A DNA stretch of 42,857 nucleotides from an uncultured bacterium (GTDB lineage: Bacteria > Patescibacteriota > Minisyncoccia > Phycocordibacterales > UBA11359), in NCBI GenBank assembly GCA_903831815.1, contig CAIKZC010000009.1:71576-114432 (forward strand), given 5' to 3'. Below are positions 22,418 through 25,449 of the stretch, in pieces. Below the pieces are notes generated by a model, which made no database searches, had not been told where the DNA came from, and saw only the letters and a program-made list of their open reading frames with translations. Both the position numbers and the translations under genes were made by a program. The first letter of the stretch is position 1; every line of letters starts with the position of its first letter.

Positions 22418-22990
22418 ATGGTTAAGATACTTCAGAAAGAGGACAAACTTTTGCGCAAAACCGCCGAAACGGTGGATTTGGCGTTCATTGGCACTCCAGA
22501 ATTCAAGAAAATCACTTCTGACATGCATGACGCCATTATGAGCCAAGATGATGCCGTAGCTGTGGCTGCTCCGCAGATTGGAGTTTTGAAAAGAATCTTT
22601 GCCATTTCCGGTCGCGTTTTTGATAATTTTGAAATAAAGGAAAACCCGCATCCGGATCTCATTTTCGTTAATCCAGAGATCATTAAACTTTCCAAAGACA
22701 AGAAAATTATGACCGAAGGATGTTTATCGGTACGATACTTGTATGGAAAAATTCGTCGAGCTTCGCGCGCGACGATTCGGGCGTATGATGAACACGGCGA
22801 AAAAATAGAACGGGGTGCATCGGGACTTGTAGCGCAAATCTTCCAACATGAAGTTGATCACTTGAACGGCGTGCTCTTTATTGACACCGCCAAAGACTTG
22901 CAAGATATTCCTCCGGAGAAATTACATATTCACAAAAAAGTTGAACCAAAAACCGGACACAAGCCGGAACACAAACATACCCATGAATAA
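22418..22990 (+). CDS. def: Peptide deformylase; start moved to MVKILQ
   Basis: AVAAPQIG, EGCLS, QHEVDHLNG; TTGACG-17-TATGAT ends 6 nt before the ATG. Confidence 0.95.
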   Translation: MVKILQKEDKLLRKTAETVDLAFIGTPEFKKITSDMHDAIMSQDDAVAVAAPQIGVLKRIFAISGRVFDNFEIKENPHPDLIFVNPEIIKLSKDKKIMTEGCLSVRYLYGKIRRASRATIRAYDEHGEKIERGASGLVAQIFQHEVDHLNGVLFIDTAKDLQDIPPEKLHIHKKVEPKTGHKPEHKHTHE

Positions 22991-23894
22991 TTCCGACGCT
23001 CAAAAAATCGCATTTTTTGGCACGCCGCAATTTGCCGTGACAATTTTGGAAGAATTGAAAACCGCCGGTCTCATGCCGGCGCTTATTATCACCGCGCCGG
23101 ACAAACCCCAAGGTCGTGGCATGATTATGACACCCCCACCAGTTAAAGTTTGGGCCGAGATTAACAAGATAAAAGTCATTCAACCGACGACTCTCAAAGA
23201 AAACGCCGATGAGAAAAATTCGCCGATGTCGCAACTCGCCGAACTCACTAACCAACCTTGGGATCTTTTTATTGTCGCCGCTTACGGCAAAATTATTCCG
23301 GAAAACATTTTGGGAATTCCGAAACACAAAACACTTAACGTTCATCCTTCCCTACTACCTAAATTGCGCGGGCCTTCGCCTATTGAAACAACAATTTTAA
23401 ATGATGATCGAGATGTCGGCGTTACCATAATGCGTTTGGATAAAGAAATGGATCACGGGCCGATTGTGGCACAGGAGAAATTGCCACCCGAAAAAAACAC
23501 AGAAGGAAACGAGGTGTGGCCTATTAACGCGACGATTCTCGAAAACGCCGCCGCGATAGCTGGCGGCGCACTTCTCGCCCAAACTATTCCGAATTGGATT
23601 GCCGGAAAAATCGTCGAAAAAGAACAAGATCACACCAAAGCCACTTATTGCAAAAAAATCACAAAAGCAGACGGTCTCATCGACCTTTTCACCGACCCTT
23701 ACCAAAATTATCTCAAGATTTGCGCTTACTCAGGTTGGCCCGGCACACACTTCTTTCAAAAGAGCGTCGGAAAAAACATTCGAGTCACCATCAAAAAAGC
23801 CCACTACAAAGACGGCCAATTAACTATTGAAACTGTAGTGCCAGAAGGCAAATCTGAAATGCCTTATCAAGATTTTTTGCGAGGGATAAAATAA
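22983..23894 (+). CDS. fmt: Methionyl-tRNA formyltransferase; start moved to MNNSDAQ
   Basis: FFGTPQFA, PDKPQGRG, NVHPSLLPKLRGPSP, MDHGPI. Confidence 0.95.
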   Translation: MNNSDAQKIAFFGTPQFAVTILEELKTAGLMPALIITAPDKPQGRGMIMTPPPVKVWAEINKIKVIQPTTLKENADEKNSPMSQLAELTNQPWDLFIVAAYGKIIPENILGIPKHKTLNVHPSLLPKLRGPSPIETTILNDDRDVGVTIMRLDKEMDHGPIVAQEKLPPEKNTEGNEVWPINATILENAAAIAGGALLAQTIPNWIAGKIVEKEQDHTKATYCKKITKADGLIDLFTDPYQNYLKICAYSGWPGTHFFQKSVGKNIRVTIKKAHYKDGQLTIETVVPEGKSEMPYQDFLRGIK

Positions 23895-24253
23895 GAACCG
23901 ACTTGCTGAAAAAGACGTTTAGTTCGAGCGGCACTGCGTCTGATAATATCTTTTCTTTTGGTATTTTGCTTTTTTAATTCACTCAAAATTTCATCTTTCA
24001 CTTCATCAATAGCTGCGTACAAGTCATCATGATCAGCGGAGGCAAACAAACGTTTGTTTGGCAATAAAATAATAATTTCAGCCCTGAACCCTTGTCCTTT
24101 TCGTTGTCTATGGTCTCTCCTAATATCAACTTCGATAAGAGTTTCTGGCGGAACGTTTTGCAATAAGTGTTCAATAGTGACAAGTTTCTTTTCGATATAA
24201 GACGAGATTGAATCCGTTAACTCTATACCATGCGTGTTTGTTCGAATATTCAT
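23867..24253 (-). CDS. hpf: Ribosome hibernation promoting factor (HPF/RaiA, short form)
   Basis: IELTDSISSYIEKKL, DLYAAIDEVKDEI. Confidence 0.88.
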   Translation of the reverse strand: MNIRTNTHGIELTDSISSYIEKKLVTIEHLLQNVPPETLIEVDIRRDHRQRKGQGFRAEIIILLPNKRLFASADHDDLYAAIDEVKDEILSELKKQNTKRKDIIRRSAARTKRLFQQVGSYFIPRKKS

Positions 24254-24327
24254 ACTAAACAATTATTAATTTAATAATGTCGTACTACAACCGCGCTTCT
24301 CTATACTCTATTATACCGAACTTGCCA

Positions 24328-24567
24328 TCACTTTGTTACACTTTTTTCTACATCAACACTTAAAAGTTTGCTTGGCGAGTGGTGACCGCTAATTATTCGC
24401 ACCTGCGCTGGTTTTATTTTGTATTCCCTAGCCACAATTTCTAAGATTCGTTTATTGGCCAAATTTTGTTTGGCTTTTTCGCGCACAAAAATTTTGAAGT
24501 AATTAGGCTTCTCTAAAACCACTTCCTCTTTTTTAGCACCGGCCACTACCCTGACTTTAATATACAT
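24328..24567 (-). CDS. DUF167/YggU-family protein
   Basis: IKVRVVAGAKKE, ANKRILE, IISGHHSPSK. Confidence 0.85.
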   Translation of the reverse strand: MYIKVRVVAGAKKEEVVLEKPNYFKIFVREKAKQNLANKRILEIVAREYKIKPAQVRIISGHHSPSKLLSVDVEKSVTK

Positions 24568-24717
24568 ATATTGATAGTACCATAAATATATAACCCCGCT
24601 GGCAAGACAACGCCTGTATTGCAAACTTGCGTTTTTTAGCTATACTATTCCTTGTAGCCCAAATCCCGCAAATCCTTTTGCCCGAATCAAGCTACTTGTT
24701 TTTTAACAAACAAATAT

Positions 24718-25027
24718 TCCGCGATAGCTCAATGGTAGAGCAATCGACTGTGGTTACGCAGCTTCCTAAAGAAATTTAGGAATGTAAACAAGGTGAATTG
24801 CTGGAAATCCTTTCAAGGACAATCAGCAGCCAAGCGAGACAATCTGTCTAGAAGGTTCAGAGACTATCCCTTCGGGGAGTAGTTCCGTCAGATTCTAAAA
24901 GACGGCACGAAGCGCCTTGCACCTACAACGACAATCCGTCGTCATGGTGATGATATAGTCCATCCCTAGAAGTAATTTTAGGACAAATGTAATCGATTGG
25001 TTCCTGGTTCGAGTCCAGGTCGCGGAG
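24718..25027 (+). tRNA. tRNA-Asn(GTT) interrupted by a group I intron (exons 24718-24751 and 24990-25027)
   Basis: Joined exons TCCGCGATAGCTCAATGGTAGAGCAATCGACTGT|TAATCGATTGGTTCCTGGTTCGAGTCCAGGTCGCGGAG give a perfect 72-nt cloverleaf. Confidence 0.93.
24752..24989 (+). ncRNA. Group I self-splicing intron, 238 nt, no ORF
   Basis: P (GAATTGCTGGAAA), Q (AATCAGCAG), R (TCAGAGACTA), S (GATATAGTCC); P1 CTGT/GCAG with U-G; P3 CAAGGTG/CGCCTTG; terminal G at 24989. Confidence 0.92.
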
Positions 25028-25176
25028 CCTGTATACAAATTAACAATGTGACAATTTTAGGTGTTGCACCTCAGACTAGAATTCGACGGGCAAATTTGAC
25101 ATATCACGTATTGTCTGCTATATTTTTTAAAGTGTTAAGCATGGTCTTTCACTTCACAAACAATAGGAGCTACGCG

Positions 25177-25449
25177 ATGTCCAAACTTAACGGTCCCGTC
25201 TGCCTCGTCACTGTTCCATTCAACCAGTTGGCAAATATGGCCGTCTTTGCCAAAGCCCATCGGCTTCAGACCGTGTTCTACGGTTCGTTCCAGGGAACTT
25301 CTGAGTGGCTAGTGTATTGTCAAATCGGCGAATGGCCGCATGAGTATCCCATGTATCTTGAGGGTACCGGCATTACCATCGAAGACTTTACGGACGATGT
25401 CGTTTTGGCAAGACTCCTGCCACGCACCGAGTGGGAAATCGGTCTCTGA
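25177..25449 (+). CDS. Hypothetical protein
   Basis: TTGACA-17-TATATT, AGGAG SD before MSKLNG. Confidence 0.65.
   Translation: MSKLNGPVCLVTVPFNQLANMAVFAKAHRLQTVFYGSFQGTSEWLVYCQIGEWPHEYPMYLEGTGITIEDFTDDVVLARLLPRTEWEIGL

Follow-up and report, generated by a model that had tools for sequence, protein, structure and literature searches.

How does a bacterium with a reduced genome read its asparagine codons when the only tRNA-Asn gene that can be found is broken within the anticodon? This question is raised by positions 24718-25027 of a stretch of 42,857 nucleotides (nt) from an uncultured bacterium of the Candidate Phyla Radiation (CPR)/Patescibacteria type (assembly GCA_903831815.1, contig CAIKZC010000009.1, positions 71,576 to 114,432 of the forward strand; hereafter the window). 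An original prediction, made by a model from the sequence without database searches, had placed here a tRNA-Asn gene with a compact group I intron inserted between tRNA positions 35 and 36. Our analysis confirmed that the locus is a real tRNA-Asn(GUU) gene interrupted by a group I intron. In all likelihood it is the sole tRNA-Asn(GUU) found in this genome, transcribed as a 310-nt precursor in which a 238-nt group I ribozyme separates U35 from U36 of the anticodon.

The Rfam model Intron_gpI (RF00028), a single model that covers all group I introns, matches positions 24692-24982 along its full length (model positions 1-253 of 253) with 80.3 bits and an E-value of 5.5e-19, against a gathering score of 50 bits. 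The match recurs in a search of the whole genome, in whose coordinates the split gene lies at C9:96293-96602. When the two exons were joined by script, ARAGORN called a tRNA-Asn(gtt) with a regular cloverleaf, and when introns were allowed it reported i(35,238) on the unspliced DNA. The gene had been expected to escape tRNA finders, and default ARAGORN and the Rfam tRNA model did both skip it, the only tRNA seen in the window being a tRNA-Glu. The exon and intron boundaries listed in Table 1 are the sole choice in this copy that gives both a U at position -1 and a G at omega, the last intron position. CCA is not encoded at the 3' end of exon 2.

A blastn search with the split gene over 401 genomes of the same order (a sample including G249, which enters the tallies only) yielded 29 loci besides the window's own. 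For comparison with the proposed structure, 22 precursor tRNAs lacking an intron open reading frame (ORF), each from a different genome and the window copy among them, were aligned. In this alignment 92.5% of cells are paired, compared with 77.5% in shuffles and 33-45% in slid controls, and both-sided changes occur at 58 of the 89 pairs; not one of 500 shuffles reached any of the five measures. Compensatory changes are seen in P2, P3, P4, P5, P6a, P7.1, P7.2, P8 and P9. The tRNA arms covary as well, with the acceptor, D and anticodon stems paired in 100% of cells, the T stem in 99.1%, and covariation at all five pairs of the anticodon stem. The minimum free energy fold of the precursor (-102.5 kcal/mol, z-score -4.68, equalled by 0 of 100 shuffles) contains the four tRNA arms together with P1, P2, P3, P4, P5, P6, P7.1, P7.2, P8 and P9. 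In only five columns does the window copy differ from a consensus shared by no fewer than 19 of the other 21 sequences, and four of these columns make up two compensated base pairs. The split gene is well preserved and very probably functional.

Every helix named in the original prediction is present in the window copy, as are the terminal G and the U.G wobble of P1 at the 5' splice site. The four exon pairs of P1, the U35.G among them, are invariant in 22/22 sequences, and the following pair, between intron base 1 and the base 5' of the guide GCAG, covaries (G-C 13, A-U 3, C-G 3, other 1, gap 2). P7 matches the Rfam consensus stretches AGACUA and GAUAUAGUC in the model alignment, and it would by analogy be the guanosine-binding helix. 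All its pairs are invariant, as are those of P6; the constancy of these two helices and of the exon part of P1 is consistent with the fold but places these pairs beyond the reach of covariation. The eight-pair P2 that had been proposed stood in its inner six pairs, which are well kept, while the outer two, unpaired in 19/22 and 17/22 sequences, are peculiar to the window copy. One G.A mismatch occurs in the P6a of the window copy. The proposed P10 (GGTTA/TAATC) can form five pairs in the window copy but is unconserved across the family, where the mean best helix is 2.68 base pairs (bp) for cognate and 2.81 bp for non-cognate pairs and the observed value was equalled or exceeded in 1667 of 2000 permutations; it was rejected as a family feature.

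Table 1. Features of the split tRNA-Asn gene in window coordinates. Cells paired, covariation and n/22 refer to the 22 aligned precursors, n/30 to the window copy and its 29 related loci.
Feature	Position	Strand	Description
tRNA-Asn(GUU) exon 1	24718..24751	+	34 nt; tRNA positions 1-35; ends C32-U33-G34-U35
Group I intron	24752..24989	+	238 nt; ORF-less, IA2-like on architecture; starts GGTTAC, ends AAATG
P1	24748..24761	+	exon CUGU + intron G+1 (24748-24752) with guide CGCAG (24757-24761); L1 = GUUA
P2 hairpin	24763..24782	+	GAAA (GNRA) loop; 8 pairs, all with both-sided changes
P3 5' strand	24789..24795	+	CAAGGUG; pairs with 24913-24919; 7 pairs, 96.1% of cells paired, 3 changed on both sides
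P4	24799-24804 with 24823-24828	+	100% of cells paired; covariation 3/6 pairs
P5, inside P4	24808-24811 with 24816-24819	+	three pairs 98.5% paired; fourth 25%, poorly aligned
P6	24830-24831 with 24854-24855	+	invariant
P6a	24835-24840 with 24846-24851	+	88.2% of cells paired; covariation 6/6
P7 5' strand	24862..24866	+	GACUA; pairs with UAGUC 24956-24960; pseudoknot with P3; 5 pairs invariant 22/22
P7.1	24867..24878	+	UCCC-UUCG-GGGA; 96.6% of cells paired; covariation 3/4
GUA linker P7.1/P7.2	24879..24881	+	directly after P7.1 in 30/30
P7.2	24885..24905	+	CCGUC ... GACGG; 82.8% of cells paired; covariation 5/5
P3 3' strand	24913..24919	+	CGCCUUG; from the alignment
P8	24920-24923 with 24946-24949	+	97.7% of cells paired; covariation 2/4
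P8, distal part	24928-24932 with 24938-24942	+	73.4% paired; many gaps
J8/7 + P7 3' strand	24950..24960	+	AUGAUA + UAGUC; GATGATATAGTCCA invariant 22/22
P9 hairpin	24965..24982	+	GUAA (GNRA) loop; 86.8% of cells paired; covariation 5/7
Terminal (omega) G	24989	+	G immediately before exon 2 in 30/30
tRNA-Asn exon 2	24990..25027	+	38 nt; starts TAATC; U36 to discriminator G73 at 25027

From these elements a course of splicing can be proposed along the lines of the general group I mechanism. The anticodon-loop bases C32-U33-G34-U35 pair with the intron guide CGCAG, the U.G wobble falling at the 5' splice site, and the terminal G marks the 3' site. An external guanosine would attack after U35, the terminal G would then move into the P7 site, and the freed 3' hydroxyl of U35 would attack after the terminal G, ligating GU to U and restoring the GUU anticodon. 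During these steps the exons are probably held together by the anticodon stem and not by P10, since this stem is paired in every cell and covaries at all five pairs whereas P10 is unconserved. The anticodon stem is reportedly required by the Anabaena intron.

The same structural evidence bears on whether the RNA acts alone. It may be a true group I ribozyme whose folding or splicing requires a protein of the host, for instance an RNA chaperone or a cofactor resembling an aminoacyl-tRNA synthetase. P1 is short (four exon pairs and one intron pair), P10 lacks support across the family, and protein-assisted group I splicing is described elsewhere (Hausner 2014, PMC3984707). We nevertheless consider dependence on a protein unlikely, as no helix of the core or periphery is missing and both P2 and P9 end in GNRA loops, the computed precursor fold is stable at the energy and z-score given above, the anticodon stem can align the exons, and no candidate cofactor was seen, though no search for one was made.

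A second question is what kind of group I intron the window contains. IC3 introns have a compact core and are not known to carry P7.1 or P7.2 between P7 and P3'. This is not the arrangement found here: the 46 nt between P7 (ending at 24866) and P3' (starting at 24913) hold two covarying helices, P7.1 and P7.2, which the original prediction had proposed as extra helices and which proved real. In one report (PMC3428280), P7.1 and P7.2 joined by G-U-A are the basis for assignment to subgroup IA2, and Hausner 2014 (PMC3984707) counts P2, P7.1 and P7.2 among the features by which group I introns are classified. The covarying helices and the GUA linker, kept in 30/30 family members, therefore point to an IA2-like architecture, which backs the earlier guess of subgroup IA. 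On this architecture the window intron appears to be IA2-like (phage-type) and distinct from the four classical bacterial tRNA introns, all of which are marked IC3 (Williams 2020, bioRxiv 10.1101/2020.01.27.920355).

Searches of phage sequences gave further indications. Blastn matches to the intron were obtained in 63 phage records, none extending over more than 41% of the intron. Such partial matches, a likeness to phage IA2 introns, include ones under protein-coding genes, namely psbA of S-PM2 and a terminase gene, and others adjoin HNH genes of crAss-like phages; one match in an E. coli phage lies directly against the cut end of a coding sequence annotated as terminase. The locus in Prevotella phage Lak-A1 (L177, MK250015.1:208774-210045) shares the stretch P7-P7.1-GUA-P7.2-P3', with an identical P7.1. 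ARAGORN called no tRNA at the two phage loci inspected, the Lak-A1 locus having been checked for 600 nt on each side. These matches have to be weighed against the possibility that the intron is not an IA2-type phage-like ribozyme but belongs to the IC3 lineage and gained an insertion between P7 and P3'. Its site in a tRNA anticodon loop is that of IC3 introns, it carries GNRA loops on P2 and P9, and the IA2 call comes from architecture. This origin is in our view improbable, because the supposed insertion forms a pair of covarying helices with a conserved GUA between them, the stated signature of IA2, and because partial matches lie under phage psbA and terminase genes, one match adjoins a cut terminase, and the Lak phage locus shares the very stretch in question.

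The source genome is a 776-kb assembly of 10 contigs and 95.7% completeness. No second tRNA-Asn was present among the 42 tRNAs reported by ARAGORN, each exon occurs only once in the assembly, and none of the 27 stem-flanked CTGTT-type hairpins found there lies in a tRNA context. The interrupted gene is thus the only tRNA-Asn found and, as had been suggested, the decoding of asparagine codons appears to rest on splicing.

Comparison across the order extends this result. The original prediction had called the position atypical, but the rarity this implies is overstated: searched as an exact pattern, the Asn-specific 3' junction is present in 84 of the 401 genomes, which represent 62 of the 223 genera, and the reversed pattern gave 0 matches. 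The 84 junction-bearing genomes were reduced to 80 by leaving out G185, G325, G189 and G292, most of the 80 being at least 96% complete, and were set against the first 80 junction-free genomes of at least 90% completeness. An uninterrupted tRNA-Asn pattern was present in 4/80 of the former (the reversed-pattern control matched 4) and 72/80 of the latter (control 2). The intron, where present, therefore lies nearly always in the only tRNA-Asn gene, and this sole-gene pattern provides strong indirect evidence that the intron is spliced in the cell.

In order to look for the splice joint itself, sequencing runs were examined. The split-gene stretch was contained in four lake-water DNA runs among the 20 runs listed, and the joint was sought in two DNA runs (X1, X2) and two RNA runs (X16, X17). 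A 24751/24990 joint was present only in DNA contigs, whose loose ends belong to intronless tRNA-Asn genes of other organisms, so this joint is uninformative on splicing. The RNA runs held only relatives at less than 95% likeness, one contig of which crosses from the intron into exon 2.

Several points count against a sole tRNA-Asn gene restored by an IA2-like ribozyme. The alignment shows no variation in P7 or in four of the five pairs of P1, P10 is without comparative support across the family, and the subgroup call comes from architecture alone. Autonomous and protein-dependent splicing would be indistinguishable at the level of sequence. A second tRNA-Asn may lie in the missing part of a genome that is 95.7% complete in 10 contigs, and no ligated-exon RNA from the source organism was found in X16 or X17. 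The last two points would also suit a dead, intron-disrupted pseudogene, with tRNA-Asn either imported into the cell or encoded by a second gene missing from the assembly, but this is very improbable given an intact core whose only departures from the consensus are compensated pairs, covarying tRNA arms paired in 99-100% of cells, and an uninterrupted tRNA-Asn pattern that is missing in 76/80 junction-bearing genomes and present in 72/80 junction-free ones.

The relatives of the intron bear on its mobility. At 28 of the 29 related loci the sequence reads CTGT/intron...G/TAA, a tRNA-Asn split at the same 35/36 place. The labels Thr(tgt), Thr(cgt), Tyr or Stop that ARAGORN gave to several members were rejected as boundary ambiguity where the intron ends in GTG, as all these members read CTGT/...G/TAA. 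The remaining locus (L028, G201:C2) reads CTGT/...G/CAC and is a tRNA-Asp(GUC) split at the same place. Its intron is 58-71% identical to the Asn copies, which lies inside the range among Asn copies themselves (57-84%), and the family has therefore probably moved between these two tRNAs, which share the CUGU sequence. Introns of the same family at the 35/36 position of tRNA-Asp(GUC) were also observed at L091, L092 and L101.

Seven of the 29 related loci carry longer introns of 553-585 nt, in which an HNH-type ORF starts within the P1 loop (L1). The product is 106-116 amino acids long at six loci (L010, L014, L017, L018, L025 and L034), and the seventh ORF (L023) is truncated to 79. Three of the seven were compared with Pfam HNH, and one scored above the cut-off of 21.4 bits (22.6) and two below it (16.6 and 20.3). 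The C-terminus ...G-I-T-Q-L-P is kept and is encoded by the guide ACGCAG together with the 5' strand of P2. The window copy retains a frame of 50 codons at 24627-24779 that ends ...V-T-Q-L-P-K-E-I-stop within P2. This being the only frame, the 238-nt intron holds no homing endonuclease, in agreement with the original prediction, and it can probably be regarded as an ORF-less member of a mobile intron family. A tblastn search with six intron ORFs from the relatives found no HNH remnant near C9:96293-96602. Elsewhere in the source genome (G000) the search gave two weak HNH-like matches at G000:C2:62025-62673 (minus strand; best E 9e-5 at C2:62500-62673), a few hundred bases from tRNA-His(GUG) at C2:61899-61970.

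Within genera of the order the presence of the intron is patchy. A pattern scan of the whole collection returned at least 120 stretches and at least 80 loci, figures that show breadth and not frequency. The 80 loci listed comprise 34 Asn junctions, 3 Asp junctions, 1 CAU-type tRNA and 42 chance matches outside tRNA genes. The titles of 28 of the 34 Asn-junction records name lineages that we take to be CPR/Patescibacteria: Parcubacteria/Paceibacterota, Saccharibacteria, Portnoybacteria, Staskawiczbacteria, Nomurabacteria, Spechtbacteria, Shapirobacteria, Falkowbacteria and Peregrinibacteria. The other titles name Omnitrophota (three), simply a 'bacterium' (two) and Gammaproteobacteria (one). 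The tRNA-Asn 35/36 junction was accordingly seen in metagenome-assembled genomes labelled Candidatus Omnitrophota (L076, L079, L088) and Gammaproteobacteria (L070); these copies could reflect transfer beyond the CPR or mis-binning.

Taken further, these observations allow a broader scenario, which we offer tentatively, as possible rather than probable. The intron would represent a separate phage-like IA2 lineage, not a variant of IC3, that recognises C32-U33-G34-U35 of tRNAs with GUN anticodons. It may have moved between tRNA-Asn and tRNA-Asp by means of an HNH endonuclease whose last codons (...TQLP) double as the guide and P2. It would have become fixed as the only tRNA-Asn in about one fifth of the genomes of a CPR order, where the decoding of asparagine codons would depend on RNA catalysis.

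The original prediction had allowed that such introns may not be wholly new, and this holds true. The number of tRNA settings known to carry group I introns was raised from 4 to 21 by Williams 2020, in which metagenomic assemblies of unnamed phyla have the second-highest frequency, 0.49 split tRNA genes per genome. Some tRNAs with group I introns are described in circularised CPR genomes by Lui 2021 (PMC8172020), and the intron is common in the present order (84/401). The basic phenomenon is thus already on record. Under the naming rule of Williams 2020 (loop position 0-7, then the -1 and omega bases), the window intron is an Asn.4Ug, its loop reading CUGU/g...g/UAA with the insertion after the fourth anticodon-loop nucleotide. 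Neither 'Asn' nor '4Ug' appears in the text of that preprint, which lists its 21 settings in Table 1, Fig. 3 and supplements. Our literature search found no text naming a tRNA-Asn group I intron in CPR bacteria or 'Asn.4Ug', although the tables or supplements of Williams 2020 may do so. The excerpt of the tRNAscan-SE 2.0 paper (PMC8450103) at hand mentions only fMet and Ile2 introns. As far as we have seen, the IA2-like architecture and the near-universal sole-gene status within the order have not been spelled out in print, and the reading of the intron as a phage-like IA2 lineage is represented there by at most a table entry in the 2020 preprint.

Three groups of known systems lie closest to the window intron. 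The tRNA introns of Williams 2020, like this one, lie in bacterial anticodon loops with U at -1 and G at omega, and were found by the same means, Rfam Intron_gpI and intron-tolerant ARAGORN; the text of that work gives its new settings without analysis of subgroup, endonuclease or sole-gene status. The classical Leu.3Ug, Arg.5Ug, fMet.2Ug and Ile2.5Ug introns (Williams 2020; PMC8450103) share with the window intron the anticodon-loop site, the P1 U.G, the paired anticodon stem and a tendency to be overlooked by standard tRNA finders; the window intron differs from them in the tRNA (Asn), in the site (35/36) and in its extra covarying P7.1 and P7.2 with GUA. The third group is formed by phage-type IA2 introns with HNH endonucleases, for instance the DNA polymerase intron of Pf-WMP3, which encodes I-PfoP3I (PMC3428280) and has the same P7.1-GUA-P7.2 arrangement and, as in the window intron's relatives, an HNH ORF that overlaps ribozyme core sequence. 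That intron resides in a phage protein gene, whereas the window intron resides in a tRNA gene of a cellular genome. The phage intron also lacks the P2 present here and has its ORF in P6a, where the relatives of the ORF-less window copy have theirs in the P1 loop.

These results have practical consequences, as standard tRNA finders report the source genome and about one fifth of the sampled genomes of the order without a tRNA-Asn. Completeness scores may thus be wrongly lowered, or the function wrongly thought missing, and an intron-tolerant search corrects this false absence. The locus would also be a clear case in which ribozyme splicing is needed for an essential decoding function of a reduced genome, one that holds a split tRNA-Thr(GGU) and inserts in rRNA genes as well. 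In addition, the IA2-like fold and the HNH-bearing relatives appear to tie tRNA introns of the CPR to phage-type mobile introns and not to the classical IC3 introns.

The split tRNA-Thr(GGU) lies at G000:C1:62777-63042 on the minus strand (locus L035:378-643) and contains after U36 a 190-nt insert with G as its last base; ARAGORN gives the gene the wrong label, His(gtg) i(35,190). The insert had no Rfam Intron_gpI match at E-values up to 1. Its consensus over 14 homologues is group-I-like, with covariation at 31 of 63 pairs, a P1 U.G in 13/14, a P2 with a GNRA loop, P4-P6, an invariant GACUG/CAGUC P7, P8 and P9, and no P7.1 or P7.2. Among the matches listed, those of full or near-full length came from about 21 of 151 genomes of the order, and many other genomes had an intronless form.

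Among the rRNA genes, the 16S gene at G000:C5:1-2709 (L037) is 2709 nt long, compared with 1533 positions in the model, and contains two weak group I matches (C5:717-1190 and C5:1671-1869). A further group I match, of 45.6 bits, lies at C3:223-420 in the 3' end of the 23S gene (G000:C3:1-721, L036).

In the immediate neighbourhood of the split tRNA-Asn gene, the upstream genes are a methionyl-tRNA formyltransferase-like gene at 22881-23894 (plus strand), a ribosome hibernation factor of the S30AE family at 23867-24262 (minus) and a DUF167/YggU protein at 24328-24624 (minus). No Pfam match was obtained for the three downstream ORFs up to 26494. A promoter and terminator scan of 24450-25250 gave three promoter-like sites, compared with a mean of 1.8 in shuffles, a difference that is uninformative.

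Two further observations concern the tRNA set of the genome. It includes, at G000:C1:87610-87684 and C1:65264-65444, a tRNA-Ile(UAU) and only two CAU tRNAs, which suggests that AUA may be read by tRNA-Ile(UAU) and not by a lysidine-modified CAU tRNA; cases of AUA reading by tRNA-Ile(UAU) are noted in PMC8450103. A tRNA-like gene at G000:C3:910-981, between the 3' end of the 23S gene and the 5S gene, reaches 56.5 bits under the Rfam tRNA model; ARAGORN leaves its anticodon unassigned ('???', ca).

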